Source: Euglena gracilis (taxonomy: Eukaryota). From it: a stretch of 64,000 nucleotides of DNA. Location of the stretch: contig CP154954.1 of assembly GCA_039621445.1 (NCBI GenBank), forward strand, positions 42,964,632 through 43,028,631. Reading direction: 5' to 3'. A model generated the notes under the pieces. That model worked only from the letters and a program-made list of their open reading frames with translations, searched no databases and was not told where the DNA came from. Below are positions 1 to 63,970 of the stretch, piece after piece. The position numbers and the translations under genes are program-made. Positions within the stretch are counted from its first letter, which is position 1, and the number at the start of each line of letters is the position of its first letter.

Positions 1-339
1 CCCCCCGGGGGGGGGGGGTGCTGCCAGCCCTAGCTAGCCAGCCCCTTTTTTGGGGGGTCCAGCCCAATTTTTTTTTGAAAAACTGTGTTCAAAAGTGGCC
101 AAAAATGGGGTTTGGGGGGCGTTTGGGCCATTTTTGGGGGGTTTCAGATGCATCATTTTTTCAAACCTGTGTTCTGCAGGACATTTTTGGGCATTTTTTC
201 CGATTTCAGTCCAGCTCGCCTTGGTTCGGGTCCAGCTGGGGTCCACCCCCCCCCTGGGGGGGCGGGCTAGCCAGCCCAAATTTCTAGCCCTAGCCCAGCA
301 ACCCCCCCCCCCCGGGTCCTTAAAGAGGTGTATGGCGGA

Positions 340-3272
340 CAGAAGGCAGGCAAACCTGATCTGGGCCTCCCTGTGGTTGATCTGTCCGTGCAGCACCTCC
401 TGTCTTGCCGGCCCAACCGAAAGCAGACGGCCCAAGGCAGTCCCGGAATTGTCGGGCGCAGCCTGGCCGATGAGTGCGCCCCCGATCACCCGGGGATGCG
501 ACCCGGGGCCCCTTGCCGGGGACGGCTGCCGCGGGGGCTGGTTCACCCCGCAGATGCTGCTGCAGCCCGGGGCCATCGAGGACCGGCGCTTCCCGTACGC
601 CGGCCGGGACGTCGACTGCGTGACCACCGACCTCTGCCCGGGTGGAGGGGACGCGGCGCTTGGGGAGTGTCTGTCCCTGGGGGAGAGGAGCCGGTCTGAA
701 TGGACCCTCCGAGAAGTTTCAGCCGATGCCGAGCAACGTCTTGTTGCCCAGCAAAAAGAACCGCAAGTGAGCCAGCCATCCCCCCCAGGGTGTCAAGTGG
801 GGGAGGGGAGGGGGGTCAGACCCCCTCCCCCCCTTCGGACCGAGGGGGGGGTCCAGGACCCCCCAGGAACCCCGGAGAGGCAGGGATAGATGGGAAGCCT
901 TGAAGGGGGGGTCGGACACCCTCCCCCCTACCTCGAAACTGAAGGGGGCTGGGAAAGTTTTCGGTTTTGTGAACAGGCAAAGGCCCGAAACGCAGGCCAA
1001 AATTGGGCAAAAATCCCTGATTTTTTATTGAAACTAATTCCAAAAATGCCCATTTTTTGAAAAATTTTACCCACTTTTTTTCACGTAGAAAACACCAAAA
1101 CATCAAAGAATGCAATGGCAGGGGGGCCCAGACCCCCCCCTACCACCCACCTCAAAACCGAAGGGCTTCCCATCTCTCCCTGGGGAGGGGGTCCAGGCCC
1201 TCTCTCGGGGGGAGGGAGGGAGTCCAGGCCCCCCCTCCTCCCCGTTCACCTGATGCCCTGCCCCCCACCCCCTGCAACCCTCCCCCCGGCCCTGCCCGGT
1301 GGCCAAGGCGTTCGGCCACGAGTACATCCCCCTGCCCCCGCAGGAGGAGGGGCGGGTGCATGCCATCAAGCGCATCATTTGGAACGAGGGCCCGGTGGCG
1401 GCCGCAGTCCAGGGTTCGATACAAGGGGGGTGTATGGGGTTTAGGCTGCCCCCCACCCCCCCTCCTCTTGGACCGAGGTGTCCAGCCCCCCCCCCCCCCG
1501 CCTTGCAAGGGGTCCAGATTGACCGTGGAGGGTATCCGGGTCCCCCAAAAGGTCAATTTTCTCCTTCTGGCACTTTGCGCCCTTTTTTTTTGGAATTTGC
1601 CCAAAACGTGCCAAAATGGCACTTTTGGCTGACTTTGGGTGGCAAAATTTTCCGCCTGGCGTTTTGTGCCGGGCCAAAAATCGGTCACCCGGGCCATGCC
1701 ACTGTTTCGATGGGGGGGGTCCCTTCCCGTTCCATGAAGAGGGCTCCCCACCTGCCCTTATATTGAGCCCTGCCGCAGTCGCAGTGAACCGCGCCTTTCA
1801 GGCCTACACTGGCACAGAAGCTTCTTGCCCACACCGAAAACAAACTCGCGCGCACACACACATGCACAGGCAAAGTCTATCAGGTAAAACCCCCCAAGTG
1901 TAAAATCAGTTTCATATTTGGGCGGAAATTTCAAGACCCCCACGGGGGGTTTAATCATCTGTCCTTTTCCATTTTGTGCCTAGTAGTCCTCTTGTGTTGC
2001 TTCCAATGGAAGAAACCCTCTCCGGAGACTCGCTTGATGGCTCGACTTCGGGCGTTTCGAGTGCCGAGGCCACTGAATCACCGACATCCGAGGAGAGGAG
2101 GCCCCCGGATCCAAAGCTGATGTTTTATATTTGGGGGGGGTGCATTTGGGGGGTTTTGCATTTTTTCCCCGGATTGAAGGACGTTTCCTGCATAATTTCA
2201 AAAGGCCAACAGTTTTCCCTCTGGAAGGTCAGCCCACAGGTGGGGGGACAACCCCCCCCCTGTTGGGGGTGTCGGAGGAGTTGAGCCAGCCCAGCCGACC
2301 CAGGGGCTCCTGCCACGGTGGCATCTTCAACGAGGAGAGCGATGCCCCCCCCACCCAGGGCCCACCGACGGGCACCGCCCCCACAGCCCTTGTGCTGGAG
2401 CTGCGTGCTCCGCTGCGATGGCGGAGGTATGTCTTTGGAATGGACCCCGCCCCCATCCCACCCCCCCGGGGCGTCCTGCGCTCTGGACCCCCTCCTTGTG
2501 CTGAAGTTGTGCCTGTGCCTCACCAACAACTTATTCCCCAAAACGTTGAGAAAAGCGATCTAACTGTGAAAAGGACATTGTTTTGAGGGCTTTGGGTATT
2601 CTCCTTAGTTGCAGCCAGCACGGAGTCTTTTTGGACGCCCCTGCTTGAACCCCCTCAACACATCCGCGAATTTCTCGCCGAGCGGATTTGCTCCTCCTGC
2701 ATTCCTGACAGCCCCCTCTCCTCGCTTAACTCGCCAGAACGCATTTGCTGAGGGCTGCCAGTATGCTTTTGCCTTCACTTTGCTGCATCCGCACCTCCAC
2801 GTCCAATTTTCGGATGCCTGGCCTTGATTAGGTCACCAAATGGTGGCCCCCACAACAAAGACTATTGAGAGGTGGACCAAGGTTGTGTCCACTTTTTTTT
2901 GAGTAACAGAAAACATGTGCATGGATGGGGCTGGGGCTTCTGTGGATTACAGGGATAATGTTCAGACAAAGCGGTCATCCTCCGTTTGATGTGCCCCCAG
3001 GGGAAAGTTCACGTGACGGGGGAGGTGTCCTGGCGCTGAAACAGGTCAACAGAGAATCAAAGATGATTTTCTGTCCCCTTCCCCGCTGCCCGCCCTGGCT
3101 GCAACCATGCGGTGCTCCTGATGGGGTGGGGGCCGGGGTACTGGCTGCTGCGCAACTCCTGGGGCCCCGGCTGGGGGGAGGCGGGCTACATGCGCATCCG
3201 CCACGGGTGCCACAGCGTCGGCCGCTACGCCAACTACGTCGTCCACCCGTACCGTATGCGCTCCCTGCCCCG
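340..3272 (+). CDS. Papain-family (C1A) cysteine protease, multi-exon, 5' part (including catalytic Cys) upstream of the window
   Basis: Exons ~340-405 ([11 protein letters not shown]), ~497-641 ([16 protein letters not shown]...[10 protein letters not shown]), 1300-1416 ([15 protein letters not shown]), 1778-1811 ([11 protein letters not shown]), 2318-2352 ([12 protein letters not shown]) and 3103-~3272 ([30 protein letters not shown]). They join in frame and give the C1A motifs in order, including catalytic His and Asn. First intron boundaries and the 3' end are approximate. Confidence 0.88.
1420..1772. mobile_element. hAT-like MITE forming a non-canonical intron (intron 1417-1777)
   Basis: TIRs CAGGGTTCGATACAAGGG / CCCTTATATTGAGCCCTG (15/18). 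Perfect 8-bp TSD CCGCAGTC at 1412-1419 and 1773-1780. Removing the element plus one TSD restores [16 protein letters not shown]. Confidence 0.85.
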
Positions 3273-3588
3273 CCACAGAGAAACCTCGTTTCGTTTTCAT
3301 CACGAGTACGGGGCATTTGTTTTGTGGCGGGCATTTGGACGCCACCGTGTTACCGAGAGGAATGGCACTAGCACGACGAAGCTAGGGACCCATCCCGTAC
3401 CGCGCGGCGGGAGGCCATTTGGTGGCACAGCCAGAACCTGCCGCTGTCTTCCACAGGGGACGCCAGCTCCCTCCACTGCCAGGCTCGCTCCGTGCAGGGC
3501 CACCTCCGCAGGCGCTCAGGCCAACTGTCCGCACTCATTGGCGTGGCGCTGATTGCAAGGGAATCTATGGTCTTCCTCCTTTCCTGTT

Positions 3589-4012
<424 letters not shown>

Positions 4013-4185
4013 GGTAGTTTTTTTGGCTGATTCTGTTGCAAAAAAAGGAAGTTTTGGAGGTTCAAAAAAATTCGGCGCTTCGCGCATATCACCAGAAAAA
4101 AAAATTTTCCACACCAGAAAACTACAGGTAACTCCCGAACTGCCGAAATCAAGTCCTGATCCAGGGCTCCACCACATGCACACGC

Positions 4186-5767: not shown

Positions 5768-8700
5768 ATGCCGCTGTGGGGCCGGGTGGACGCCGCTGGC
5801 CAGGCCGTCCGCGGCGGCGACGGGAGGTGGGATTGGCGGGACGGGGGAACGGGTGAGGGCGTGGGTCGCTGTGTTCTGACGTGAGACGGTTTGCCGGGGC
5901 CGCTCAATACTTGGACAGGAAACAAACGGACGTCCCCAAGGTGGAGGATTTTGTACTGGGGGGGGGGGGTTGCTGGAACAGGTCAGTGTCAAAACAGGGC
6001 TGAGGGGTAGAGCCTTTGCTGACCCCGAAGTCTTGAAGCACGTCATCCCCCCTGGTTGGTTGCCAAAGCGCTTGCAACAAAGTTTAAAGTTTGTTGCGTG
6101 AAATGAACACAGGAAGCCTTCATTCGCAAGGGCAATGAATGGGCGACAATGAACACGTTGGAAAGTGAATGAAATTTTGGAAAATGTAATTAAATTCTGG
6201 GCAAATATGAAACGGTGCGTGAAACCGGTTTCCGTTCAGTCTCAACTGAAGAGGTCAAGGCTGAAGCTGGGCTTTGCAGAAGAAGCAACCTCATCTTTGC
6301 TGAACAAGAGACACACGTCCCGGGAGTAAGACACAGAAAATGAATTCCAAAGACAGCCGTGAAACCATGGTGAGGGCCCACCTGTGTCACGGATTTGGCC
6401 TTCAGCAAATGCAGCACAGCCAGGAAAGTCTGTTCCATGTGAACCCCTCCGGCCGTATACTTTGGCCCGAGAGGACCACCTCCGCCCGCTCAGAAGCCCC
6501 CGGCGGCCTGCCCGGGGCCAAACCAGCGCCGGCGCCCCGGCCCCGGAGGACCTGGCGGGGTCCGTCATTGACCTCGTGGAGCGGAAGAGCGCCAGGCTGG
6601 ACCCCGCCCCGCCCGCCGCTGAACAGTTGAGGCAGTGGACGTCGCGGGACACACAGTTGCCTCCCTCACCCCAAATCAACCCATGCCCCACCCCCTTGCC
6701 CATGTCTGTGCTCAACCCTGCCCAGTGCGGGAAACCACCTCCCCCTGGATGCAGCTCTGGAACAACGCCGAACGTGGCCACCCGGGCCACCGGCGAGCCG
6801 AGGGCGGGGGCCCCCTCCCAGACCTCGGCCGCCGGCGGACGGCGGTGTGGTGCCCCACGGCCCCGCCTTGCTGGAGGCTGCCATGCTGATGGAGGACGCG
6901 GGCTCCGGGGCTGCCCGGGGGGATCGCCGGCCCCAGGGCGTTTTCGTTGCCTTTGCTTTTCCCCATGTTTTCGGGCCCGGTCCTGTCCGCTGCGCACGCC
7001 GTGCCCCGCATCCCATACGCTGGGCCCGGTGGGGAGGTTTGGAAGTGGCCGCCCTGGGTTGGGCGGCCCGGCCCTGCCCCGCCCCCGACCCCACCGCTGC
7101 CCCCGCCCCGGACCCCAGCACCGCCGCCGCCGCCGCCGACCCCAACCCCACCGCCCACCCCGCGGACGCCGTCCCCGAGCCCGGCGGCTCCGCGGCAGAA
7201 GACGCCGACCTCGGCGCTGTCCCCCCCCCCCTGGGGCCTGCCTCGGGGGGGGGGGGGGTCTGTTGTCCTCCCGACCCCTCCCCGACGGGGTTGGCGGGGC
7301 GGGGGCTCACCGGCCGGACACAAACAAACGGGACTCATTGAATAGGAGGCGACCCCTCAGCACACGGCCCGTGGTCGGCCACCCGCCGTTGGTTTGGTTG
7401 GCCCCAGGGATTTTTTTAAGTTTGGACCCCCGGGGGGGGGGTAGGGTGGGTGGGTCTGGCCGAGTCCCCCCCGGGGGGGGGGTCCCCCCGGAGGGGGGTG
7501 GGATATACTTTTCGGCGCCGCAGGCGCCGAAAAAATTCTTTTTTAGCACTTTTCGCGATTTTTCGGCCATTTTTTGTGGGTCCCCCGGGACCCCCCCCCC
7601 CCCCGGGGGGGGCCCCCAGGGGGGGGGGGGGGGGGGGGGACCACCCCCCTCCCCCCCGGTCTTAAAAAACCCCTGGTTGGCCCGCGGCGGGAGGGTTGGG
7701 GTGGATGGGGGGACTGCGGCCCCGGGCGGCAGGCCCGCAGGCTGCCTGACCTCCCTCACCGGCGGGCTGGCCCTGCCTTCCTCTCTGGCGGACGGCGGCC
7801 GGGTGTGCCCCCACTCTGTGGCTGGGGGGGGGGGCGGAGCGATGCGTTCCGCAAATCAAATTTTCAAAAGTGTGCATGCTTGCACATTTTTTCAGCACAT
7901 TTTTTTTGCTCTTTGGCGCATTTTTTTCTCCATATATCCATTTTTGCCCAAATTTTTCGCATTTTTGACCATTTTATGCAAAGTACTGCATTTTTTGAAA
8001 TTTTGGGAATTTGATATTTTTTTTAAATTTTCTCTAACTGATATTTCCTTTACAATGCAATTTTTGTTATTTTTGGTGCTATTTTTGCATGTTTTTGGGC
8101 AATTTTTGCAGTTTCGTGATTTTTGTGCTTTCCCTTTTTTTCTTTTTGTGATTTAGCGCATTCCACTCCTCTGCCCGCTTATGGGAGGACCGTGCCCGTT
8201 CTGCAGCTGGGGCCGGGGACAAGGATGGCCATTGTATCGGTGCGCTTGACTGGGTTGTAGCTTTTATTTATGTTATGGAGCTGGTGCGCTTTCCCCACAA
8301 ATTTGTTCGTTTTATGACGTGGGGGAGGGGGGTTGGGTGGGTGGGTCCGCCCCCCGGAAGGGAGGGGGTGTTCCTGCATTTCCAGTGCGAAGAGCTGAAA
8401 GCAATTTGGCCGATTGGAATTGACACTCCCGAAGTGGGTCCAAAGGCGGGCGGGCGGGTGGGTGGGTGGGTGGGTGAACATCCCGAGCGTGCTTTATTTT
8501 GCTCATGGCACCGCCCATCACTTCAACTTGCCCCCCCCCCACCGCGTCCGCCCACGTGACGGTGGCACTCTCCCCATCCAGAGAACCTCTGGGTCTCTCT
8601 CGCCCTCCCCTCCTCTCCTCCGCGTCGCAGGGCCGAACGCGGCGGCGGCCTCCCTCGCCGGCCGCGAGGCGTTCCTGTTCCGCTGGGCGCTGGGCTCGCC

Positions 8701-9500: not shown

Positions 9501-10574
9501 CTGTCCCCCCCCCCCCGCCGAGGGAATGGCTGGAGGTCCCCCAAACCCTGCCACAATGACAAGCCCCGCCCCCCCCTTTCACCCACCAGCCCCGTCACCC
9601 TCCCCTCCCCCCACACCGAACACCCTTTGCTCGAGAGGGGTTTCCACAATTCCTTGGGCTGGCTGATTTGCCTTCGCATGGTTTTGCACTGCGCATTTAT
9701 TGGGGATGGACCAATTATGCCTCAAAAGAGGATTTTTTTTTGCTCAAATATCCAAATTATTATATTTTTTGACATTTTCGCATCAAATTTGCCAGTATTT
9801 TTGAAGGTTTTTGGACCTGAGAAACGGGGGCATTTTGGGGGTTTCTATGCATTGGTCAGGGTATTTCACACAATTAGGACGCTGCATTTTGGGGGGGTCA
9901 CTGGCACAAGCTAAGCAAGCAACCAAAATGGCCTGGGAAGGTGATAACCTCATGGGGTGGCAATTTCCTGCGGAGGGTGGCAATTACCGGCGGAGGTGTG
10001 AAATCGAACTAGGAACGTCTGAAATCGGCTTTGTTGCAGGTGAATAACTGGGGTTCGTTGTAGGGGACATGACTCTGCACACGTTGCAAACGCAGCCACA
10101 ATCAGCAACATGCGTGGTTCGAAAAGTGATGCGATTTCCCCCTTATTGTTGCCAAATCTCCACATCGCCGTCAACCAAACGTCGCACCTGCAAATTATGC
10201 CTGCTACATTGGTGGAGGGTTCGAGTGTTCATGCCTCTTCCCCAGAAGGTGTCATTTCGATGACGATTCTTTGTGAATGAGTACCAATTCTCCTTCGCGG
10301 TCAGCATGGAGGCCGGCCATCCCCTGACTTCCCCCTTGCACTGTGCCGACTGGCGTTGCCTGGCGCACTGCACTGCCTTGAATTGGGGCCCTTTTCCCTC
10401 GCCCCACTGTGGATTGCACCGTACCAGCCTGCTCGTCGGGCTTGTTGTTTGGCGTCAAATGGTGTATGGGGATCAAATTTACCTCACAGGATGCAGTTTT
10501 CTCCCTCACCCTCTCCCATCTTATTTCAACAAAGAGAATCATTTGATTTGTCTGGAAAGATTCTCGGGGGCTGT

Positions 10575-10727
10575 GTATATGTATGTACGTATGTGTGTAT
10601 GTGTGTATGTATGTATGTATGTATGTATGTATGTATGTATGTATGGATGGATGGATGGATGGATGGATGGATGGATGGATGGATGGATGGATGGATGGAT
10701 GGATGGATGTATGTATGTGTGTGTGTA

Positions 10728-10758
<31 letters not shown>

Positions 10759-10915
10759 ATGTATGTATGTATGTATGTATGTATGTATGTATGTATGTAT
10801 GTATGTATGTATGTATGTATGTATGTATGTATGTATGTATGTATGTATGTATGTATGTATGTATGTATGTATGTATGTATGTATGTCTGTATGTCTGTAT
10901 GTCTGTCTGTATGTA

Positions 10916-10952
<37 letters not shown>

Positions 10953-11115
10953 ATGTATGTATGTATGTATGTATGTATGTATGTATGTATGTATGTATGT
11001 ATGTATGTATGTATGTATGTATGTATGTATGTATGTATGTATGTATGTATGTATGTATGTATGTATGTGTGTATGTATGCATGTATGTATGCATGTATGT
11101 ATGTATGTATGTATG
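10575..11115. repeat. (ATGT)n/(ATGG)n microsatellite
   Basis: Direct reading of the sequence. Confidence 0.97.
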
Positions 11116-13160
11116 CATCTATGTCGGGAGGGTGGAGTGAGTGGGTGTCCGGTGCTGGACCCCCCTGGGTTGGTTTCCGTGGCGGCCCGGTTATGGGTTT
11201 CAGTGTGAAGCATTGATTTTTTTTTTGAGAAATACCCTCAGACGGCTCGATTTTCGTGGTCCGTGCCCCACAAGGGTCTCTCACTGGCTTTGCTGGGGAG
11301 GGAACCTTTTAAAAAAGGAGCCTGAATGGAATGGAATGGATGAATGGATGGATATGTGTGTGTTTTTCATACAAGTATTTATGCACACATACATGTGAAT
11401 ATCTGCATATAAGTCTCCTTGAGCTGCTCCCCTCCCGGTGAGGGGGGTAGCTCCAGGAGACCCATGACATGGGGAGGCACACAATGAATGATGGCTTCAT
11501 ATGCATGTATGTGTGTGCATGTGTGTGGAGATATAAATGTTGTTCCTGTCTTTTTTTTGTCATGACCCCCTCCTACATCTCTCCAATGTCACTTGTGCTC
11601 AGCCCTGGTTGGGACCCATACGCCATTGTGGTGTCCCTCCCGTCCACGTCTTGTTGTCACCCGGGTTGCACTGCCATAGGCTTGTGCACGCTGCCCCTTG
11701 GGCAGCCCCCCCCCTTTGTCGGCTCTCAGTTGACGGATTAGCCGCCGACCTCCCCGCCTGCCGGGGGGACGGTGTGTTCTCCCTCAGCCCCTCTGTTTCC
11801 TTTCCCTTTCCCTTGGGGGTGAGGAGGCACAAGGGCCACACCCTTCAGATTTGTCTCTGGCCCCTCGGGATTGTCTCACGCCTTTGTACTTGTTGATTTG
11901 TCCCGACACAGGTGCTCGGATGGGGTGCCAACATTTTTAGCTTTTTGGTCGAAAATGGGGGGGGGGCTCGAGATAAGAAATTTGCTGCACCGTGTTTTTT
12001 GTATTTGCCTGTTTTCTGGGGGGGGGTTGTAAATTTTTTTCTGTAATTTTGGAATGTAATTTTGCATTTTTACGCAGGTTTTTTTTCCAGGAAAACGTTT
12101 CCAGATCAATTCAAGTACCGCCGGGGCACCATTACCCACCTGGCCTCATCGGGAGTCGCCCTGCCCCTGTGTCCTCACCAACTTGGCCGAAGCCCACTTC
12201 GCACAATGGCGCCCGGCCGCGGTGTTGCCCGCCCTGCATTTTGTGCCACGCTGTGGTCGCCCCCCCCCCCCTCCGGGCCACGCCTCGGCCTCGGGTGGCT
12301 GTCCACCACCAAGTGGTATGCTCCGAACTCCGCCCAAGGGGGACGACCAGAAGTGACCGATTCCATTCCCCTCGCGGCAAACGTTTCCCGGGGTTCAGTG
12401 CCCAGGCAGGGGGTCCACATCACAGGCCACTTCGCGTTGAATTCGTTTCGCGCAGCCCAACCCCTTCCGGCCGGTCCCCCCCCCCCACCCCTTCAGGCGG
12501 CCGAAGCGGCGGGAAACGCGCTGAGCAGAACTGCACAGCACGGGCCGAGGGGTTTGGCGGTGGCGTTTGGGGCCCGCCCCACACGGCGGGAGAGGCCTTT
12601 CCACCAACCAGACATTCACATCTTGCAAACCAGTCCCCCACTTTCAACCCCCCCTCCCCTGGGTCCAGTCTCTGGTCACCCGGGCCAAAATGAATAGATT
12701 CTTGGCTTTTTTTGAGAATATTCCGGCTCCGGGGGGTTTGTGGCTACAAACCAGTCAATCATTCAAAATCAAACCAGTCAGTCACCCCTCAAGTTACCAA
12801 AACTCAGCAATGGCATGGCCTTTCCCCAAGCCTCAACGTCCATTACTCTGGACAAGCCCAAGCCAAATCAGATACCTTTTGGATTAGGTCCAACTCCAAA
12901 CCTGGAAAATTTGGGCTGGCTGGAAAAAGGCTGGTGGCTGACCCCCGTTTTCATAAGGTCCCCCAATGGAACTTGGTTTGACCCGGGGTCAAACAATTTG
13001 CAAAAAAAAGTGAAGCCCAAAAAGCTGCAATTTATGCCAAAAGGTCGATCTCCCTAAATTCGTGTGATCAAACTGGTGAGCCTGTGCATGTGTGCATTTG
13101 TCCAGCACACCCACACATACACAGCCGGTTCCCCTCCGCAGGCTTTTCCCCGCAGCTCCA

Positions 13161-16100
13161 ATGACTGCTGCGTGGGGCATGGTGGTGTGGTTCATCTGTC
13201 ACGCTGCCTGGTCCTCCATGGCGGAGGGTGTGTCACTGCCCACCCCCATTTTTCGCAGCCCCCCCCCCCCTGCAAACCCACCAACCTCACCACCAAGCGG
13301 CGCGCTGGCCAAGTCCTCGGAGGCCGGTGGTCCCCGTAAGGGAGGGGGTCACTGACCTGTTGCAGACGCCAGAGAGGAGGCATGGGGCTGGAGGATAGCA
13401 ACGGGATCCTCCTCCTCCCAAACACCCACCATAGGCCACGTCATTCGGATCGGGGGGGGGGGGGAGGCCAACCCACACTGAAAAGGCTGCTGGATGACCA
13501 CCCCCTTGGGGGGGAATGCTTTCCTCAAAAACCCAGTCACTCACTTCCGAGCTTGGGTGGTTGCCTCAGATCAGGAATTATCCCGTTTGGCTTTTTTTCC
13601 CCCCAAAAAATGGCTGGCGTCGGTGGGTTGCTTTTGGCCGTCCACAGATGACCCCCGGGGACTGGTATATACTTTAAAAAGATTGGACAACCTGAACCAA
13701 ACGACTTGGGGAAGGGAAGGCAAACATTGTTATGCATTTCCCAATCTGGCTGTCATGGGCGCCGGGGGGGGGGGGGGCTGCGAGCACCGATTACGTCGAA
13801 CACGAGTTCAAATATGTCTTTAAGTACAGTCTGGACAAAAATGCGAGGAAGGATTTTCAGCAAAAATGACAATGCAAAAATTTAAATGGTGTTCTGGTTG
13901 CATTTTTTGTGCTTTTTTTCATAAAAAAGTACCCCAAAATTGACCAAAAGTCATACTCCATCTTTTTGGATGTGAAATTTGACTACGCCTGAACACAGTT
14001 CCCCCAAAAGGGCGTAGACAAGGTATGGGGAGAAAAAAATGACTGGACAGAGAATGATGGAGAAAATTGGGTGTTTTCCCATTGTTTTTGTTTTCCCGTC
14101 ATTTTTTGTCTGGACTGAATATTTATTAAGCATCTGAGTTCATTGCCCAGCGGCATCCCACGCCACCATGCAGGGAACAACATGGGGGTGGACGACAACT
14201 CGGACGTGTTGGGTCAGGCAGCCCTCAATGCTGCTGCCCTCCTCGTAACCCAAACCGCCTCTACCACAGACAAGTTATTGTTGTTGCAGTTGTTGTTGTT
14301 GTTGTTCCAGGCTTGTGCTCAGTCGGGTGCCTACACGACGACCCCGGGGGGGGGGTGATAGGGGCAGGCACCTTATAGCACCCCATCCGACCCTCCGGGG
14401 TGTGGTAGGGTTTTTGGGGGTGCCTGCCCATAGCAGCCCTCCGACCCCGGTGCCAAAGGCACCGGGGGCCTGGAAAAGGCCATTTTCAATGAAAATTTTC
14501 TGGGTCCCCCCCGGACCCCCCCCCCCGGGGGGTGTGCCTGCTAGGGGCAGGCACCCTAGAGCACCCACCCCCCCCGGTCCACAAGCATGTGTTGTTGTTG
14601 TTTCTGCTGCTGCTGCTGCTGCTGCTGCTGTCTGATCTTTGCCTGGGGCAGGGAGGGGGGCCCAACAGACTGGACGTCGCCGTTGAATCAATTTTGCTTC
14701 ATTTTGGTTCCTCTTTTTTTAAGAAAAAAACGACAGAGAATGGCCAAAATTGGTTAAAAAAGCATATTAAGAATGCAAAAAAAAAATAGAAAAGGTGGAT
14801 GGCCCCTGAAAAATGGCCAGAAATAACCAGAAATGGCTAAAATTGGCGTAAATTTCTGAAAGAGGCTTGAGCTTTATGCAATATATCGCCTATAAGGTTG
14901 GCTCATAATTGTCAAAAGTCAAGAAAACGCCAAAGTGGCCAGCAATGGGCAAGGTGACAAAATTAGCTAAACGGACATAAACACCCAAAAATTGGCCATA
15001 TACCCCCATTTATGGCCAAATTTCTGATTTTGGGTCCCTTCCTCCCAACTTGTCAAAGACCCCCCCCCTCGCCGGCTGGAGTTGAACATTAGCTGTTTTG
15101 CGCCCCGCCCCCCACCCCCGGTCAGAGAAAAAACGCTGGTTTGTGGAAAAAGGAGAGGTTTTGACCCCCAAAAAATCTGCTCTCCCCCCGAGTCCCCCCC
15201 CCTGGCCCCCCAGGGAAGAGTGTGCTCTGTGGGGTGGCAGGGAACCCAGAACCCAACCCAGACCGCCCATAGAGCCGCTGGAGCAGCGGCGGGCGCCAGC
15301 CGTGCCTCGACGACTGCCTCGCCACGCACAGCTTCGCCGCGTGCCCCCCGCTGTTGGATTCATTTAACACCTGTGTGACCCCACCCCCCAAGGGGAGGGG
15401 GTTTGAGTGTGGGTGGTGGGTTGGGGCTGCCGGACCCTTCCAGGGAATGCGCCATCAGTCAGATTTTGGCCCGGCCAAAGGCCGGGCCGAAAAAAATTTA
15501 TCAAGGGTTTTCGGCTGATTTTGGTTGTTCTTTGGGTGGGTGGGTGGTTGACCCCGGGGAGGGGTCTTGGGTCGGTGGGGTTTCCAAAAAGTGGGCGGTG
15601 GGTTTGGGTCCGGGAAAAAGTGCCCCCCCCCCCCCGGGGTCACCAAGCGAATCCATGGCCCCGCTGCCGGACGCCTGCCGGCAGTGCCTCGGCGTCTGCC
15701 TCGACGTGCCGGGCGGCAGCGCGGCCTGTGTCACCCGCGGGGCGCTGTCCCTGCCGCGTGCATGTGCGCCGTAGTTTGGTCAGTTTCGGCGGTGGCGGCG
15801 GGGGCTGTGCGCCGGGGAGCGGGGCGGGGAGCGGGGACCATCGCCCCGCGGCCCCGACCTCTGCCTGGCTGTGCCGGGGCCGTGCACCCCCTACACCCTC
15901 TGCCCCGGCGGTGGCGGGGAAACCGGAAGGCGGGGGCCACAACTGATTTCCCCACCGAGGTTTGTACCGATGGTGCGCGGGGTCAGGGTGCAATGGACGG
16001 AGGGTGTACGTTCAGGTGAGGGTCCCCCACCTCCACCTTCTTGGACCGGATGGGGGCGGGGGGGGGGTCCGACCTGCCACCTGCCAGGGGGGGGTCCGCA

Positions 16101-17575
16101 CCGACCTTGGGGTCCCCCCAAAAGGTCAAAAATTTCCTTCCATCAATTCACGCCAAAATTTTTGGCAATTTTGCCAAAAATTGTCCCCCCAAAATGGCCC
16201 AGAATGGCATTTTTGGCTGATTTGGGGGGTGGGGGGTAAAATTCTTCGCCCGGCGTTTTGTGCCAGGGCGAAAAACAGTCGCTCGGACAGCACCGCTGTT
16301 TGGGTGCCCCCCTCCTGGACTGGGGGAGGGGTCGACCCACCCCCCACCTGCCCTCACATTGGACGGCAATGCATCCAGAGACAGACATCAGCAGCTTTGA
16401 GTGCACACCTTTGCATGTGCTTTAGGGCAAAAATTATTAGACCACCCAGTTTTCCAACAATTTTTTCCCACTATTTTACACCCAATATTTTCCTGGGCCC
16501 TTAAGAGAAACTGCTTCCTTGTTCACTTTTTGGGGGGGACTAATTAGGATCATCATAAACATGAAGCCAAGATGGGCAAGAGAAGCAATTTTTTTTAAAA
16601 AGAATTCTTTTTTTGTTGTTTTTGGAATTTCCTCGGCTGGAAAACTATGCGTTTACATCCAGCCTGAGCCCAGAGCAGGGATTTGAGGGCTCCCTGTGAT
16701 CTCGTGCTCCCTGTCATCTGGCTGGGACGGTTTTAACAGGCGAGGTGGTCCTTGGGGAAACCAAAACTCTTCCTGCCTGCCTCTCCCCAAGGCTGAATAC
16801 CTTGGGAATTGCACAAGTGGTATGGAATAGGGGGAGGGGCTTCGCCCTTTCTCCCTCTCCACCCGTTCCCATTTGAGAAGGGGTGTTGATGTATTGACCT
16901 TTTGGCACCGGTGGGCTTCTTCGCTGCGCCACGCCCAGACTTCTTTTTAAGGCAGAAGACCCCCCCTGGGGGGTTGGGGGGGGGTGGGTCCGGGCCGGAC
17001 CCCCCCGGGGGGGGGGTCCCACGCCGGATGCGCCGGGTGTACGTTTTCGGCAGTTTTCAAAAAGCGAAGCGCCGAAATTTTTTGAAAATTGCCTTTAATG
17101 GGCCTGATTTTGGGGGGGTCCCACGCCACCCTGGGGGGGGGACCCCCTCCCGCCCGGGGGTCTTAAAAAGAAGCCTGGTGGGCGACGTCATTGTGGGACA
17201 GCAGAGAGGGGTCCGTCCCCACCCCCAGCCCCCTCCGGGCCTCTTAACCCAGGGCAGAACGGGAACCGTATCGCACGTGCGTGGGGGGTGGGGGCGACCT
17301 CCCGTCCACCCCCGCCCCTCTGCCCACCGCCGGACCCCGCCGGACGGCGTTCTGCCGGGTGGAGTGCGCCACGGTCGACGCCGCCGCCTCCGCCGCCCTC
17401 CAGCCGGAGGTCCAGGCCGAAGCCGCGGGGCAGGAGGCGGAGCGTGCCGGCGCCGAGCCGCAGGCGGTGCACAGCGGCAACGGCGAGGGCGGGGACGGCC
17501 ACGCCGCGCGACGGCGCCGCGATATGCACCGGCGGGAACGGCACGGCGGAGATGACGACGACCGGGAGGGAAAGC

Positions 17576-22066: not shown

Positions 22067-25000
22067 ATGAATGCCGCGTGGGGCATATTGCTGTGGCTCA
22101 TCTCCCACGCCGTGTGGGGCTCCGGCGCAGCGGACGACGCTCCTGATGCGATGCGCCGGGCCCTCCTCCACGCGATGCGGCCGGGGGTGGCGGCCGGGGG
22201 CCCGGCGGCGGCCCCCCTCGTGACCCGGCCCGCCGTCGCCACAGACAGACAGACAGGTTGCAGCAGTGATTGTTGTTGCCTGGGTGGTGGAGGAGGAGGA
22301 GGAGGAGGTGGTGGTGGTGGTGTCCTTGTCAGGCACAGACAGACAGAGCCCAACCCAGGCAACACTGGCAAACCCTGCTTTTCCATTCGGCCAACGGAAA
22401 CAGGGGATTTTTTTTTAAAAAAAAGGCATCCCCCCATGGAAACTCTCCTCCCCAGGAAACTGTCCTCTGTCTTGTTTGCACCCGCCAAAGTCCTCATAGG
22501 GACGGCGAAAAGAGCCAATACCCCGCAGATATGACTACAAAATACCCAGAATGCAGAAATTGATGTAAAATGTGCAAGATTGTGAAGAAAAAGACTGTGT
22601 TCCTCCTGCCCCGGTCAGGAGACAATTTCCCAGGAGGGGAGTATGTCGTGTGTATCACGTAGGATAACTGTGTGTCGGATGTGTGTGTGGGATAGGAATG
22701 TGTTCATGAAATCATATTGGGTCGGATACAGAATGGAGGCATATTGTCACATGTTCACTCCAACCTTCCAATGCGGATTGGAGCGGCGGCGGGCGCCAGC
22801 CGTGCCTCGACGACTGCCTCGCTATGCGCAGCTTCGCCGCGTGCCCCCCGCTGCCGGACGCCTGCCGGCGGTGCCTCGGCGTTTGTTACGAAGTGCCAGG
22901 CAGCAACGCCGCCTGTATCGCCCGCGGGGCGGTGGGCGGTGTGCAGTCCTCGTCAGGCTTTTGCTTAAGGGATTGCAGTCCCCCCCCCCCGGGGGGGCTG
23001 GACAGCAGCTAGTGGGATTTATAGCAGACCCCCCCGGGGGGGGTCTGCTAGCAGGGCTAGCTAGTGGAAAGATTTTTTCCAGTGACCGGCGCAAAGCGCC
23101 GGAATTTTTTTTGGGACCCCCAAAAATGGCCAAAAATGCCCGTTTTTGGCCATTTTTGGGAATTTTTGGAACAAAATCAGCCAAAAACCTGTAAAAAGCC
23201 CTCATTTTTCCAGTCCGGGGGACCCCCGAACCCCCCCCCCCGGGGGGAGGGGGGTCCAGCTAGTCCACTTTTTCCAGTGTCTAGCCGATTGGCTAGCCAG
23301 TACCCCCCCCCCCCGGGTCCTTAAGCAAAAGCCTGGTCCTCGTGCAGGGGAAAGGTGCCCCCCCCCCCGCCGGGGGCACTACCCCCCCCCCCCCGGGAAA
23401 CTGTCATGCCCGAGAACCTGTCAGCGGCCAACCTGTCAGGGTCATTTTTCATTGACTTTCTTTTGAAATGCCCTACCCGGGAAACTGTCAGGGTCCCGCC
23501 CAGGAAACTGTCAGAGTCCCTGGTACCGGCCAACCTGTCAGGTGACAGTTTCCCCGGGGGGGGGGGTAGGTATGTAAATCTGTGCTCACGGTGCGTGCGT
23601 GTGCGCTCCGGTGCACAGTGGTGTGCGGGGGTTCCACCGCTCCGCGGCGTCGACCTCTGCCTGGCGGCGCCGGGGCCGTGCACCCCCTATGTCCTGTGCC
23701 CCGGCGGCGGGGGGGGGGGAGGGGGGCGCTCAAACCCCGGGAGGCGGAGACCCTCCTCCAAGGGAAAGTATTGGTCTGGTTTTTGGGGGATATTTTCCTC
23801 ATAATTCATACAATTGTTGTAAATTTGGAGTCGTGTTGCATGTTCTTGGACAGTTTTTGCATTTTTGTGACTTTTGCATTGTTCCTCTCGACCTTTGAGC
23901 ATTTTTGCGCATTTTTTTTAGAGCCCTCCGCTTTTGAAGTTGCTACGAACCATTTTCGCGAATTTGAATTTGTGGTGTTGATTTGACCTGTCATGTCCCT
24001 CGGGCTGGGGGGGGGGGTAGCTTTGGGGTCCGACCAATCAACAGTTTTCCCAGGCATTGGTTTTTTTGGTCAGAATTTTCTTTCGGCACCTTCGCCTCCG
24101 GAGGTTTTTTTCTTTGCGTGATGCCCCACTTGGAGAGCAGTTACGTTTATAGGACAATCATACCCCCTTTGGGTCTGGCTTCTTTTTTTTACTTGGAAGG
24201 CACTCCTAAATTTTCAGTTTGTCTATCTATCGTCTATTGTTCACTCCCTTTCCACTGTTATTACCAGGCTTCCATGGCACAGGGTCGACGTTTCCTCCAA
24301 ATTGTTGAGTTGGTCATTTGGCCTTTGAGTCGCCGGTATTTCCCGAAAGTACAAAAAATATTTTTTGGGTTTGGTACACAAACCCAGGAAAAAAACTGCA
24401 ACAAATTTGGGTTTTTTTGTGACGTTTCAGTGTTGTGTCCCCATTTAAGTGCAGTTTTGTGTGTCGCCTGAATTAAATTTAATGCTTTCCCAAAGTTTCA
24501 TTCAAAATGTACCCCACACGTTTTATCGTCATTTTTAACCCACTCGCATTTTCGCTCTGATTCATTCCCCCAAGGGTGTGGATGCAACGACACACCCCAC
24601 ATTACGAGGGCCAACTGACCAGTCAACCACCTCAAAAAAGCAGCCACACGCCAGGATTTTTTTTTGCCGAGTCAAACATTTCCGATTTTGGCCTCCATTC
24701 CGCCTGCGTTCGGCCCAATTCCGGGCATCGCTACCCCAGCCCTAACCCAAGCCTGACACATTTGCCCTCCCCATTCCCACCCTTCCGCCGATCGGTCCAA
24801 GAAACGCGCGTGCGAGCGAATCCCTCCCCTCAGGTTTGCACCAACCGGGACCCCCCCACCCCTCCCCGTGGTGGTCGGTGAAGGGCGCCGCTTGGGGGGG
24901 TAACAGTAGGAGGAGGTTCGAGCTCGAACGTTCGAGCTCGAACCTCCTCGAACGTTTTTGAGCCCCCCCCCCTTCGAGGGGGGGGCTTAAAATCCTCCTC

Positions 25001-25634
25001 GAATGACCTCGAACGACATTCGAGGAGGATATTGATCCTCCTCGAACGACCTCGAACGACATTCGAGGAGGATTTCGATCCTCCTCGAACGACCTCGAAC
25101 GACATTCGAGGAGGATCTCGATCCTCCTCGAACGACCTCGAACGACATTCGAGGAGGATCTCGATCCTCCTCGAACGACCTCGAACGACATTCGAGGAGG
25201 ATCTCGATCCTCCTCGAACGACCTCGAACGATTTCTCGATCCTCCTGCTATGTACATGCATTCAGGTATCAGTTGCAAGGTTTTTTTTTGAGTCGGTTAC
25301 CATCGTCCGTTGTTCTGGATTCTGCTTGTTTGTTTTTTTTTTTCTGTCTTTCACTGGCACGATTCGGAAGAAAGCAAAGACCGGGGGGGGGAGAGAGAGA
25401 GAGTGGGATTCTGTTTGTTCTCTTTTTTTCCTTCACGAGAGAGAGAGAGAGAGAGAGAGGGATTCTATTCTCCTGCTATGTACATGCATTCAGGTATCAG
25501 TTGCAAGGTTTTTGAGTCTGTTACCATCGTCCCTTGTTCTGGATTCTGCTTGTTCGTTTGATTTTTTCTGTCTTTCACTGGCACGATTCGGAAGAAAGCA
25601 AAGACCGGGGGAGAGAGAGGGGGTCCCGGAGAGA

Positions 25635-25671: not shown

Positions 25672-26167
25672 CAGGAATGCAATCATTCAAAAGTATTTGT
25701 ATTCAAAAATATTCCCATACCAAGAGAATTTCTGAGGTTATTAGAAGGAATAGGGTTAGGGTCAAGATTTCATCCCCAATGGTTGCAACCATCCCGCTCA
25801 TCGTTGCTATATTTCCCTCTACAGGGTACACAGCGAACCCAAAGAGTCGCCCAACTAGGGTTAATACACATGGGGGGACCCGAGCGAGGCGCCGAAGGCG
25901 CCGAGCGAGGGTCCCCCCATGTGTATTAACCCTAGTTGGGCGACTCTTTGGGGTAGCTGGTACCCTGTAGGGGGCAATTTTCCACGTGTTGTGAAAAAAA
26001 TATATATTCAGATATGATAAACAATTATAATAAAGACTGCTTCTTACACGGGAATGTACTCATGCATAACTGTTTTTTATTGAAAAAAATTCTCATGCCG
26101 AGGGAATTTGTAACGTTATTAGAAGGAATAGGGTTAGGGTTGAGATTTCATAAATAATAAATAATAA

Positions 26168-26208: not shown

Positions 26209-29200
26209 TAAATAACATTCATATTCAGAAATAATACTCATAACTATAAATAATAAAACAAATAAATAAAAAAATGTTTTTTATTTCACAGGAACGTGCT
26301 AATGCATAAATGTTCTTGCTGAAAAAAAAAATCCTTCCCCGAGACAACATGTAACGTTAAATCAAGGAATAGGAGTAGGGTTACGATTTCATCCCCAGTG
26401 GTTGTCACCATTGCGCTCATCGTTGTTATGTTTCCCTCTACAGGGTACCAGCTGCCCCAAAGAGTCGCCCAATTAGGGTTAATGCACATGGGGGGACCCT
26501 CGCTCGGCGCCTTCGGCGCCTCGCTCGGGTCCCCCCATGTGCATTAACCCTAGTTGGGCGACTCTTTGGGTTCGCTGTGTACCCTGTAGGGGGAAAATTT
26601 TCACGTGTGAAAAAAAATATATATTTAGATATGATAAACAATTACAATAAAGACTGCCTCTTACACGGGAATGTACTCATGCATAACTGTTTTTTATTGA
26701 AAAAAATTGTCATCCCGAGGTCATTTGTATGAGATTTGAGATTTGAGATTTGAAACTCATTTTAAATGTCGCGGAACGGTTTTTTTTTTCCTGTGAGGCG
26801 GGTTTTTTTTTTCTGGGAGGCGGATTGAAAATGTTGTAATAATTCATGGTTTTTGGAAAAGTATATACTATAAGCCAGAAGGGAAGTGGTACAGCGACAT
26901 GTCACTCAGTCTCCGGTACTGTTATTCGCTCTGTTTCACCCACAGCACATTGTCGCCACTTGCCATCAATGAACACCCCTGAACCTGGATTGCACTCATG
27001 CGTTTCTTGTATGCTTCTGATCTGTGGCTCGTGTGGGTCAGTTTCAACTACAAGGTGAATGACAGTTGAATGCATGTGCGCAGCAGGAGGATCTTGAACG
27101 ACCTCGAACGACATTCGAGGAGGATCTTGATCCTCCTCGAACGACCTCGAACGACATTCGAGGAGGATCTTGATCCTCCTCGAACGACCTCGAACGACAT
27201 TCGAGGAGGATCTTGATCCTCCTCGAACGACCTCGAACGACATTCGAGGAGGATCTCGAACCACCTCGAACGACGTTCGAGGAGGATCGAGATCCTCCTA
27301 CTACTGTCCATCCCACTACCGTAACCCTCCCGGCGCCGCTTGGCTCGGGCCGGGGGGGGGGCGAGGCTGCCCCCCTATCCCTGCCCCCCCCATATCAGGC
27401 CCTTTTTGCCCTAACAATGGGTCATCCATCACACCATAAGATGGTGCTTCGCGGGACGTTTCGCCAAATCGCAATTCCGAATTCCGAAACGTGGCATCGG
27501 CGTTGACACCCACCCAAAACCATACGGTTTGCGCTTCGCGTCCCGTTGCCGTGGGGGGTCCGGCCACCGCCGCCCGCCGCCGGGCTCCGCCGGGCGGCCG
27601 CCTGCCGCGTGGAGTGCGCCGCGGTGGGCGCCGGCGCCGCCGGGCCGGGCGGGCCGTGGGCCGGCCCCCCAACCGGGGACGTGCGGCCAGGGCTCCCTGG
27701 GGGCAGGTTGGCCCCCCCCACAGCCAAAGGTTCCCTGGGGGGGGGGGGTTTCCGGGCCACCAACGGGCTGTTCCCTGCCCCAGACTCCCCTTCCCTGTGG
27801 ATGAGGTTTAGTTTCTGGTGCGGCCTGTTTTGAGGCGGGGCGGCTGGACGGAAACGGATTTTGGCCGCGTCTTGGTGGACATCGACCGAAAATGCCAGGT
27901 CAAACTTTAGTTGCATAGTTTGTTCATTTTTGGGTTTTTTTTCCGGATCAAGTTCGTCCTGGGGCAGCCCAGGTTCCAGCCGGGGACCCTTGATGAACCC
28001 CCATGTGCTTCACTCACCACGCAGCACTCACCGCCCATATGCAAGCCCGCGTGCCAGGAAAGCGAAACGGTTGTGCACTCAATTGCATATGTCGCTCATC
28101 TCTCAAAGCGGAGCCGCAAGCCAGCACAGAGGGCCCTGTGGCTGAGACGGGCAGCCTCAGGAGCCAGACCCTCCGCCTTGCCAACCCTTGCCCATGCAAG
28201 CTGCTGGTTGCAAACCCTGTTGTGTATGACCATCACCTCACAACTGACTCACCTGTTCTCGCCCAGGACGTTGCTTAAGAAAACTTGACCCCACCCCGCC
28301 AGCAGCCGCGGACCCCCCTCCCCCCCCCCCAGCAACGAGAGTATTTATTTCCACCCGCCCTTTGGGCGACTGGACGGTAACGGATTTTTCGCTTTCGGGG
28401 GTGCGAAAATGGTCCAAAAATGTGTCGGCAAATGGCTGTCCAGGACTTTTTTTGGGGTCAAAAAATCGGGAGTGTTTGATTGATGCGTCGGATTATGCGA
28501 GGTCGTCTCCCAGCCCCCCGGAAGTCCCCCAGTCTGTCCACCTTCTCTGCCCCGTTTCTTCTTTTTGGCACCGATTTGTTCGGCCCACTGTGGGCGGGGG
28601 CTTGGGGGGTTGAAGCCGGCACCGCCAGGGGGCCCTACCCCCCCCCCCATGCCTGTCCTGCCAGGCCGGTGGTTGGCCCAGGTGAGCGCTGTCGGCCCGG
28701 CCGGCAGCAGCGGGCCCACCCCATGCCCATGCCCCCCCCCCCGGGCAGTGCGGTGCGGGGCCAGGCTTCCAGCTCACAGGCGCCGAGGGCGGCCCGGGCG
28801 GTGCCGCAGGGCCAAACGCCGCAGAGGCCCCCGCCCCTGGAGAGCCCGGGCAGGGGGACCTGCAGGGGGGGGGGGGGGGGGCGGGGGGCGCCGGCCACCC
28901 CTCGCAGGGCAATGCCTGGTGGCCGTGGCAGTGTGGGCAGGAAGCTGGGTTGGGTTGAGACTCCGGACGGCGGAAGAAGGGCGGGGCGGGCAATTTTCTC
29001 GGAGACCCAGAACCCCCCAGACTGTCACTCGAAGGTGGCGGACGAATGGGAGGCGGCAGTGGGATGTGACTCCGTCTGGAGACCGAACCCCATCGCTGGT
29101 GCTCTGAGGCCGGGATGGAGCAGAGTCCCACCCTCTTTCTGGCTGGATTCTGCCTGGAGGGAACGGGAGACACCCCTAGTAGTTCACCCTGAGTCAAATG

Positions 29201-53822: not shown

Positions 53823-56070
53823 ATGCCTCCCCGCTCCGCGGCGCTGCCCCTCCCGCTGTTGCTGGTGGCCGCTGCCCTCCTCCCCGGCCCCGGCCCGGCG
53901 CTGGCCGCCAAACCCCCCGCTGGTCCAGAGGTTTTTTTAAGTTTCGTGGCCCAGGGAGGGGGTGGGTGGGTCCCGGGTGCAACACAGGGAGGGCGTACAG
54001 GGTTTGGGTGGGGCGGTGTCCCCCCCACCCGTCCGGACCACCCCCCCCCACCTGCCAAGGAGGGTCCGGACCGAGTGGAGCGGTCTGGGTGACCGATTTT
54101 TGGCTTGGCGCAAAGGGCCAGGCCGAACAGTTTTGACCCCCCGAAACGACCAAACGTGCCATTTTGGGCCCTTTTTATCAAAAGTGAAAAAATTTTCGGC
54201 ACAAGCGCCGGAAGGAAAATTTTGACTTTTTGGGGGGTGGGGTCCCAACCCCCCTAACCCCCTCCCCAAAAGTAAGACCCCCCCTGGACGTTCCGAGCAA
54301 AAATCCATGAAATGGACCCCCCATGAAAGGAATGGCCGGAGGCCTGAAGGAAGGCACGACAAGGGGTGGAAAAAAAATTTTATGATCATGCATCAGTAGC
54401 ACAGCTTCACTGGATAATGGTCCCCGGTCAGGGCCTTCGCCTCTTTCTCTTGTGTCTCACTTTGGCCATCCTCAGAGATATCTTTATAGGGCCGCTCCTC
54501 CAGCCAAGTGATCTCTTTCCCCGTCGCCCTGGGTCACCAGGACTCTGACTCTCACTGAATCCATGAAGCAAGTCTTCAGCAATGGCATTTTGTGCCATGT
54601 TTATGTCTATGAACGGGAAAAAAAAATGACGTGAGAATCAGTGCTTCCCACAATAATTTCCCAAAAACAAAAATTTTCCAGCAAAAAATGCATAAAATGG
54701 ACCCCCTCCCATGAATAAGACACCCGACCGCAACAGCAACCGACCCATGAAATGGACCCAGGGTCTTATTTGGGGGGGGGGGTAAATTTTAGGACCCCCA
54801 AAAAAACCCAAAAGTGGGTCCCCCTGAGCCCCCCCCCCAGGTGGTGGGTGGGTGGCTGGGTCCTTTAAAAAAAAGCTCTTCTCCGACCCCTGGGCGACAC
54901 CCAGTTGGCGGAGCTGCGGCTCGAGGCGGAACGTCAACAATGGACCTTCGAGGTCGGGCCCACCCAGGGAGGGAATGTCTCCCATGGCACCACAGTGCAC
55001 AATCGCAACAGGCACACACACACACACACACACACACAAACCAAGTTGAAGTACACGCTTCCAAATTTTCTTCCGGACATCATTCTTCTGGTGGTTGTGT
55101 GGTTGTGGTGGTTGTTGTGTGTTTTTTTATGCAAAAAACAATCTCTTGGGCGGCCAAACTCGTACTTCATCTTTTTTTTGGTCGGTGTACTCATTTTCGC
55201 ACACGTCGAAAAGTTTAATTTTGGCGCTGGCGTCAAAAGAACACAAGAACTTTGAGCGAAAGGGAGCACGACGACGACAAATCCGAGCGAATTACCATTT
55301 TTGGCCCTGGCTCTCCCGGGATTTTTGTGTTTTTTTTTAATGGTCAGCATGGCACAAAAACCCCTGGACCTATCCCCCCAAAAGTGAAAAAAGCCAACCA
55401 AAATACCAAAACCCCAGTGCAGCCACCCCCTTTGGCCCTTTGCTTGCTTTTGAAGCCCTGGGGCACGTTGTGGAGGTTTTTGAAGTTGGTCGCGAAAGAA
55501 GTGGAAACGCATGCACAACAAATACAATGGACTGTATGAGAATTCTGCCGTGCTGCATGTGTGTGCATTAGTACGTGCGTGCTTGTGTGGTCTGTTATGC
55601 GTGCCATGCGGACATCAGTGTGTTTTGTGTCGTCCGTGATGCTTACCCAAGGCAGAGGTCCCCCCCCCCCGGGTCTTTGGACACCCGCCATCCCTGCCCA
55701 CAACGACGCCACGAACCGCTCCCTCTCCCAGCTGTGCGGCTTGAAGGTGCCCCGCAACATTGACGAGCTGGTGGCTGACAACACCGCCCCACCGCCAGGG
55801 GGCCCTGGGGGGGGGTGGAGAACAGGGCATAGTGGCGCTCCAAGTGCTTACCCCGAAAAAGCATTTTGCCTAAATTGGCAAAACTCGCACTACTATATAT
55901 ATGTATGTATGTGCGTGCGTATGCATATATATATATATATTATATATATATATATTATATTATATATGTGTGTGTATGTTTCTGTGTGTATATAGAGAGA
56001 GAGGTATGTATGTATGTATGGATGTATGTTTGTATGTATGTAGGTAGGTAGGTAGGTGGGTGGGTAGGTT

Positions 56071-57083: not shown

Positions 57084-57164
<81 letters not shown>

Positions 57165-63719: not shown

Positions 63720-63970
63720 ACACACACATGCAGGGAGACAGACACAACACATACACACACACACACCACACACACACCACACACACAAACACACACACAC
63801 ACACACAACACACACACACAAACACAACACACACAACACAACACACACACAACACACACACACACACACACACAACACACACACACACACACACACAACA
63901 CAACACACACACACACAACACACACACACAACACACACACACACACAACACACACACACACACACACACG
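63720..63970. repeat. (CA)n-rich microsatellite
   Basis: Direct reading of the sequence. Confidence 0.95.

Follow-up and report, generated by a model that had tools for sequence, protein, structure and literature searches.

We have analysed a stretch of 64,000 nucleotides from Euglena gracilis (assembly GCA_039621445.1, contig CP154954.1, positions 42,964,632 to 43,028,631 of the forward strand), referred to here as the window and numbered from its first letter. It is GC-rich nuclear DNA with genes whose introns are of the nonconventional kind known from euglenids. Close to its left end lies a protease gene of the papain family (relatives of PF00112), and within an exon of this gene a MITE (miniature inverted-repeat transposable element) has been inserted. 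A protein search with the exon at 3103-3252 returned 18 C1A proteases with PF00112 (best identity 72%), and among these matches there was no identical transcript-derived protein that would fix the exon junctions. The protease exon upstream of the MITE occupies 1294-1406 on the plus strand, where a transcript contig is placed on 1292-1400, and the element itself, 363 bp long, occupies 1410-1772. A 34-nt exon follows (1778-1811, plus strand), delimited by length accounting and by the alignment with homologues, before the next intron starts. On both sides of the element stands CCGCAGTC, at 1402-1409 and at 1773-1780, two copies of a target-site duplication (TSD) matching at 8 of 8 positions. Read directly from the sequence, the first letters of the element are CAGGGTTCGATACAAGG and the last CCTTATATTGAGCCCTG; its 17-bp inverted ends (1410-1426 and 1756-1772) start with CAGGG and are complementary at 14 of 17 positions. 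It is thereby confirmed that an exon of a papain-family protease gene contains a MITE flanked by a perfect 8-bp duplication. The initial annotation of this DNA had described an insertion in coding sequence with CAG...CTG ends and a perfect 8-bp TSD, and this is borne out by the letters; the span it gave (1412-1780) falls on the right feature but begins 2 nt late, includes the second duplication and does not mark the intron itself.

By the published code for nonconventional splicing, the intron containing this element runs from 1407 to 1777 on the plus strand, with borders GTC-CAG...CTG-CCGCA followed by G. The code was derived from knock-in tests and comprises 3 nt, the triplet pair CDG...CH'G, 5-6 nt and an exon beginning with a purine (PMC12501133). 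Altering the 5' spacer by 1 nt abolishes splicing, while the 3' spacer tolerates 5-6 nt with a preference for 5 nt, and the first base of the downstream exon must be a purine (PMC12501133). In the focal intron we find GTC and then CAG at 1407-1412, CTG at 1770-1772, the five letters CCGCA, and G at 1778. The ends of the element can form 12 RNA base pairs in a row (two of them G.U), counted from intron positions +4 and -6, and the minimum-energy fold also brings the two ends into pairing. The intron can be slid across 1401-1410 (6 nt to the left, 3 nt to the right) with no change to the mRNA, and GT/GC-AG borders appear at none of these equivalent placements. Since the code puts the cuts 3 nt ahead of CAG and 5 nt beyond CTG, the element is lost together with one duplication, that is 371 nt or 363 + 8, and the removal of 1407-1777 restores the reading frame. 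The left duplication leaves its first 5 nt in the mRNA and the right one its last 3 nt, which together make one copy of CCGCAGTC. The arithmetic of the initial annotation, in which spacers of 3 + 5 nt equal one 8-bp TSD, is therefore right.

Reads and contigs were placed on positions 1-3770 of the window. A contig of the presumed RNA run X15 (record 13; 1183 nt, depth 32.9) is placed on 379-428, 520-633, 1292-1400 and 3102-3253, with the element and exactly 8 further nt missing. Of its letters, 74 stay unplaced between the third and fourth of these pieces, and with the joints placed leftmost the predicted pieces 1772-1810 and 2317-2351 make up exactly those 74 letters. The exons have an X15 depth of about 10-33, the interior of the element one of 0.33-0.35. 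Contigs of the DNA run X1 cover 1159-1452 and 1760-1936 with no differences and bridge both junctions of the element, which is therefore present in genomic DNA.

A paralogue of the protease gene in the same window (59289-62365) allows the site to be seen in its uninterrupted state. When the MITE, one duplication and the next two introns are removed from the first gene, its GPVA.AV motif and the catalytic NHAV motif stand 22 residues apart, as they do in the window paralogue and in the database proteins P0001 and P0005. The repaired gene aligns gap-free with the paralogue exon at 59289-59373 (plus strand) over 85 nt or 28 codons, with 60 identical nucleotides, and this exon is the paralogous empty site of the MITE insertion. 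The next two introns of the first gene, 1812-2317 and 2353-3102, share their positions and phases with the paralogue introns 59374-61264 and 61300-62212. These neighbours are common to both genes and the MITE insertion is not, so that the MITE intron is the young one.

The inserted element belongs to a multi-copy family. A second full-length copy (59620-60005, plus strand) lies nested within the paralogue intron 59374-61264 and has a perfect 8-bp duplication of its own, CCCCCAGG, at 59612-59619 and 60006-60013. Its identity to the first copy is 69.7% over the main blastn match of 277 columns in the self-comparison of the window and 79% in a MAFFT alignment that includes the flanks, in which the ends align base for base. 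Partial copies are found at 16110-16286 and 54074-54236. The summed word depth of the DNA run over the interior of the protease element is about 2630-2670, against about 105-190 on nearby unique sequence, which hints at many close copies, this figure being a depth and not a copy number. A metagenome scan with the 17-nt end pattern gave at least 119 stretches, none of them resembling the element any further, and we take them as chance matches.

Two more elements, unrelated to this family and without an assigned strand, have the same kind of ends and flanks. One, of 271 bp (7405-7675), has CAGGG...CCCCTG ends that begin CAGGGATTTT... and the perfect 8-bp duplication GTTGGCCC. The other, of 382 bp (22954-23335), has CAGGC...GCCTG ends in which the first 17 nt can pair throughout with the last 17 (CAGGCTTTTGCTTAAGG); its perfect 8-bp duplication is GTCCTCGT, and it is situated in an intron-like gap between duplicated exons. 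Paired short exon-like blocks at 15279-15919 and 22779-23715 are duplicates of each other (85-95% identical) with unalignable sequence in between, and the element starts about 20 nt beyond the first block of the second copy. An empty site for it, sought by means of the duplicated exons at 15.28-15.92 kb, was not found, as the intervening sequence fails to align. A further MITE-like element of 302 bp (881-1182, no strand assigned) is nested in the intron 636-1293; its ends, CAGGGATAGATGGGAA, are complementary at 11 of 12 positions and its flanks match at 6 of 8, and the loose ends and joints of the read placement halt at 1182, its right edge.

In order to compare these flanks with chance, we have taken as a control set the CAG...CTG pairs of the window that lie 50-3000 bp apart and whose ends are complementary at no fewer than 9 of 12 bases. 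Flanks identical at 8 of 8 positions occur in 4 of 1129 such pairs and in none of 4 x 1129 shifted-flank comparisons. Sorted by length over 1127 pairs, perfect flanks number 0 at 7 bp, 4 at 8 bp and 0 at 9 bp, with a control mean of 0.5 at 8 bp. None of the nine other end trinucleotides tried gave a surplus of 8/8 flanks. A scan without fixed ends found 8/8 flanks in 7 of 8884 pairs; three are CAGG...CCTG elements and the remaining four are low-complexity sequence or tandem repeats. These counts support the conclusion that real CAG...CTG-ended mobile elements generating 8-bp duplications reside here.

We propose that a non-autonomous DNA transposon of a multi-copy family would have entered the protease exon and duplicated 8 bp of it. 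In the pre-mRNA its CAG/CTG inverted ends would pair into a stem seen by the euglenid nonconventional splicing system, which would cut 3 nt upstream of CAG and 5 nt downstream of CTG; the element and 8 nt, equal to one copy of the duplication, would be removed and the mRNA would be back to its state before the insertion. This reading builds on the observed element, duplication and family, on the absence of the insert from the transcript contig and on the restored alignment, and it takes the requirement for 3-nt and 5-nt spacers from published experiments (PMC12501133). That MITE insertion and nonconventional splicing together bring about such a scarless removal of the element plus one duplication is, in our judgement, highly probable, and the match of 3 + 5 to the duplication length is presumably why insertions of this kind survive in exons. 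CAG/CTG ends with an 8-bp duplication should lead to scarless excision from RNA if position 6 of the duplication is a purine on the sense strand. In two of the four perfect duplications of the window this position is a pyrimidine on the plus strand, and since the code also demands a purine at the start of the downstream exon, the more general idea of the initial annotation, that any new insertion is a ready-made intron, goes further than the data.

A way to assess how far this applies to other nonconventional introns is to look at the 12 (the focal one included) for which the initial annotation had claimed the same rule with in-frame joins. The geometry (3 nt, a C-A/G-N triplet and its complementary triplet, 5 nt, purine) fits 12 of 12; the next exon base is always a purine, and at least 4 pairs form from +4/-6 in every one. 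The variant triplets CAC/GTG (31646, 61300), CAT/ATG (13214) and CGG/CCG (56337) are as it had described them. The in-frame joins are more unevenly backed: by the transcript contig for 1812-2317 and 2353-3102, by homologue length for 59374-61264 and 61300-62212, by flanking homologous segments for 56337-57323 and 58022-58234, by continuity of the repeat frame for the three introns of a repeat-protein gene, and by the open frame alone for 13214-14189 and 54962-55701. The two older introns next to the MITE intron, both on the plus strand, read GCA-CAG...CTG-CCACG then G (1812-2317) and ACC-CAG...CTG-GCTGC then A (2353-3102), each with a paralogue intron at the same position; their duplications match at 3 of 8 and 4 of 8 positions, respectively. 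Two introns defined by the transcript contig also fit the geometry and bring the set to 14, namely 430-520, with CAA/TTG triplets, and 636-1293 on the plus strand (GCC-CGG...CCG-GCCCT then G), which has the 8-nt direct repeat CTGCCCGG at its borders and a modelled duplication matching at 6 of 8 positions.

Some observations on these introns may be recorded here. The interior of 1812-2317 includes a high-copy segment (1891-2016, DNA depth about 131,000, with repeat boundaries at 1909, 1938-1952 and 2122) that is probably another nested element. The repeat protein is rich in His, Glu and Lys (HKEGE-type units) and is encoded by an extended array of tandem 27-nt repeats at 32187-33493 (also 30571-30661), interrupted at 30657 and 33489 by nonconventional introns with nearly identical 5' ends. 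Each protease paralogue has a nonconventional intron in the loop after its LLSC motif (430-520 and 58022-58234); the two are offset by about two codons, in loops of 10 and 14 residues, which could be intron sliding or independent gain. At 3253 the protease transcript contig departs from the window; the next intron begins with GT, so that this one gene contains introns of both the conventional and the nonconventional type, and a further exon ends near 3492.

Duplication relics set the focal intron apart from the rest. The matches per 8 positions in the 12 listed introns are 8, 3, 4, 2, 3, 5, 3, 4, 2, 1, 1 and 2, with a full duplication in the focal intron only. Over all 14 introns the 8-mers of the same intron match at 3.36 positions on average, against 2.63 across introns (permutation p=0.027). 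When the focal intron is left out, the mean for the same intron is 3.0 of 8 against the same 2.63 (cross pairs among all 14) and p=0.145, which is no significant relic and weighs against extending our reading to the other 13 introns. The claim that nonconventional introns in general are MITEs with an 8-bp TSD therefore holds for the focal intron and finds no such backing in the others, and the interpretation of the initial annotation as a whole is partly supported. The missing relics in the older introns fit decay and fit other origins equally well; decay is compatible because, at an exon identity of about 74%, the introns common to the gene and its paralogue have ceased to be alignable. A purine stands at intron position +1 in 13 of 14 introns and C at position +3 in 11 of 14, so that intron start and downstream exon start both tend toward purine-N-C. 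A decayed duplication predicts this pattern at the two cut sites, and so does an enzyme that reads both sites alike.

In its widest form, our proposal is that the splicing system is an RNA-level excision whose 3-nt and 5-nt distances are tuned to the 8 bp that CAG-ended transposons (hAT-like, or of another superfamily with 8-bp duplications) duplicate, that insertions into exons are silent from the first generation, and that most of the roughly 70% of Euglena introns that are nonconventional descend from such insertions. We advance this tentatively, as an idea nearly as apt to hold as to fail. If it is true, the excised circular RNA would contain both ends of the element, linked through one re-formed duplication, the other copy being kept in the mRNA. 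The geometry could instead predate transposons and be unrelated to them, so that insertions with CAG/CTG ends and 8-bp duplications merely pass selection in exons while most introns have another origin. The lack of a significant relic in 13 of the 14 introns speaks for this, as do the triplets outside the tested CDG/CHG code in four of them; on the other side, the age of the introns that the paralogue also has would have given the unconstrained halves of a duplication time enough to decay, and border direct repeats are reported in 84.4% of all E. agilis introns (PMC12501133). We consider this independent origin unlikely, while giving it real weight.

As to the superfamily of the CAG...CTG elements, hAT is our leading guess rather than a result. 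The hallmarks of hAT transposons, namely 8-bp duplications and short inverted ends of 10-25 bp (PMC3260210, PMC3942097), are seen in the window elements: the 8-bp duplication in four of four, with enrichment at flank length 8 only, and short inverted ends beginning with (C/T)AG. The maize Ac/Ds end reads (C/T)AGGGATGAAA (PMC3942097, PMC3260210), so the (C/T)AGGG start is also shared, and elements 881 and 7405 begin with CAGGGAT, having their first 7 nt in common with it. Unlike the window elements as known here, hAT transposons including Ac/Ds are described with a transposase, subterminal binding repeats and a target consensus. A search for the autonomous hAT that the initial annotation had suggested looking for, made with the 10 longest of the 285 open reading frames of at least 110 aa in the window, yielded 0 Pfam families and no transposase, which counts against the hAT label and also against our reading of the insertion. 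By the hAT target-site rule, position 2 should be T and position 7 should be A. In our four duplications, read on the plus strand, T stands at position 2 in two and A at position 7 in none, and no clear target consensus emerges from these four. Two Merlin families with 8-bp duplications are known from the E. gracilis genome (PMC8101967), and the 8-9 bp duplication of Merlin, a superfamily marked further by an IS1595-type DDE transposase and family-specific inverted ends, fits in length. Mobilisation by a superfamily other than hAT, e.g., Merlin, would make the label wrong and leave the logic of the scarless intron intact. It draws on these Merlin families, on the missing transposase and on the lack of a target consensus, and it has to face the Ac/Ds-like ends and the hAT hallmarks described above; on balance we find it rather doubtful.

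For the protease insertion itself, the alternative that matters most is that the X15 contig came from an allele, a strain or a near-identical paralogue that never received the element, the filled copy being an unspliced and broken gene. An empty allele or a strain without the young insertion would yield an identical contig, and the perfect duplication is the mark of a young insertion, for which polymorphism is conceivable. Several further points weigh against our reading here. The absence of the element from mature mRNA is seen in X15 record 13, a set classed as RNA by guess only, from a different sample than the DNA run; the RNA runs were obtained as same-species additions and small-share guesses, and of the 425 placed letters of the contig 3 disagree with the window. 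The raw RNA runs X21 and X24 placed 33 and 35 reads, too few to give a joint at the listing threshold. Some reads and contigs also lie on 1387-1512, and these may derive from other copies or from unspliced RNA. Against the alternative, the element has all the features of the code with which splicing was achieved in the knock-in tests (PMC12501133), the neighbouring nonconventional introns are spliced in the same X15 contig, and no empty-site joint appears among the 15 of 43 DNA joints listed. We infer that splicing, and not an empty allele, made the X15 transcript, and regard the alternative as quite improbable. Finally, that the 8-nt repeats arose by double-strand-break repair with filler DNA, as was offered for the 8-nt repeat at a new gapC intron of E. 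agilis (PMC4770533), seems extremely improbable for an insert that is a member of a family with conserved inverted ends, that has two copies with different perfect 8-bp flanks, and whose end and flank rule is obeyed by two unrelated elements with enrichment at length 8 only.

Insertion of a MITE followed by nonconventional splicing agrees with much that has been described for euglenids. A MITE-like origin of nonconventional introns has already been proposed (PMC3935182, repeated in the discussion of PMC12501133), as have CAG/CTG at +4..+6 and -8..-6 as inverted ends with TSD-like border repeats (PMC11282704), and nonconventional introns make up 71.8% of those of E. agilis (PMC12501133). Like the published introns (Milanowski 2014, 2016; Nomura et al. 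2025, with the formula N3-CDG/CH'G-N5-6 plus purine), the intron 1407-1777 has this geometry, the stem pairing its ends, non-GT-AG borders and a purine at the exon start; unlike them, it can be assigned to a multi-copy element family, its 8-bp duplication is perfect and a paralogue shows the site empty. A close case is the strain-specific gapC intron 4 of E. agilis ACOI 323, likewise a recent nonconventional intron, whose junctions have direct repeats of eight nucleotides that its authors read as break repair; no element family is reported in the text there, whereas in the protease gene the family and the inverted ends point to transposition (PMC4770533). A statement that the 3 + 5 spacers equal the duplication length was not found in the published papers searched; figures and supplements lay outside this search, and among them the distribution of sliding distances in Fig. 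1B of PMC12501133 may show a feature at 8. Neither a multi-copy element family acting as nonconventional intron nor hAT in Euglena introns was found in the text of the papers searched, and in the text of PMC12501133 neither "TSD" nor "hAT" occurs.

Outside euglenids, the comparison that comes to mind is with Introners. The 1410-1772 element resembles them in being a DNA transposon whose duplication helps the splice geometry; a multi-copy element acts as an intron and its duplication aids exact removal, with only one window copy lying in an exon. Introners, as Huff, Zilberman and Roy reportedly described in 2016 (a study cited in PMC11170887 and discussed in PMC11282704), are MITE-derived spliceosomal introns of Micromonas and Aureococcus in which the duplication is said to supply part of the splice geometry, so that an insertion becomes an intron immediately. 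The difference lies in the sites: Introners use GT-AG spliceosomal sites, whereas 1407-1777 follows the stem-measured non-GT-AG euglenid code and is not removed at such sites.

Where euglenid nonconventional introns come from, why their spacers measure 3 nt and 5 nt and what machinery splices them are questions still to be answered (PMC12501133). The protease insertion is a well-documented young example that makes the old MITE hypothesis directly testable: with one family that is both an 8-bp-duplicating transposon and a working nonconventional intron the hypothesis becomes countable, and the identity 3 + 5 = 8 is a sharp prediction that can be addressed genome-wide and by knock-in. The same identity would explain the cost-free spread of introns through coding sequence, the 8-nt repeats at young introns and the purine-N-C at both cut sites, and the exact removal of the elements suggests how the odd introns of euglenids can arise without damage to genes.

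Other repeats are conspicuous in the window. A very high-copy repeat occupies 1-378 (DNA summed word depth of about 550,000-670,000, where unique sequence reaches 100-200). Its inverted ends are G-run/C-run (10-309), its internal style is of the type CCAAAAATGG / TTTTGG as in the MITEs of the window, and many loose ends and joints fall within it. Inverted blocks of 43-bp tandem repeats lie about 2 kb apart at 24990-25230 and 27090-27300, and between them 25812-25977 and 26431-26596 form a 166-bp inverted repeat (95.8% identity), an arrangement that looks like a foldback-type element. Long microsatellites of the TG/CA and ATGT types are located at 3550-4060 (with a repeat at 3782-3882), 10540-11140 and 63600-64000.

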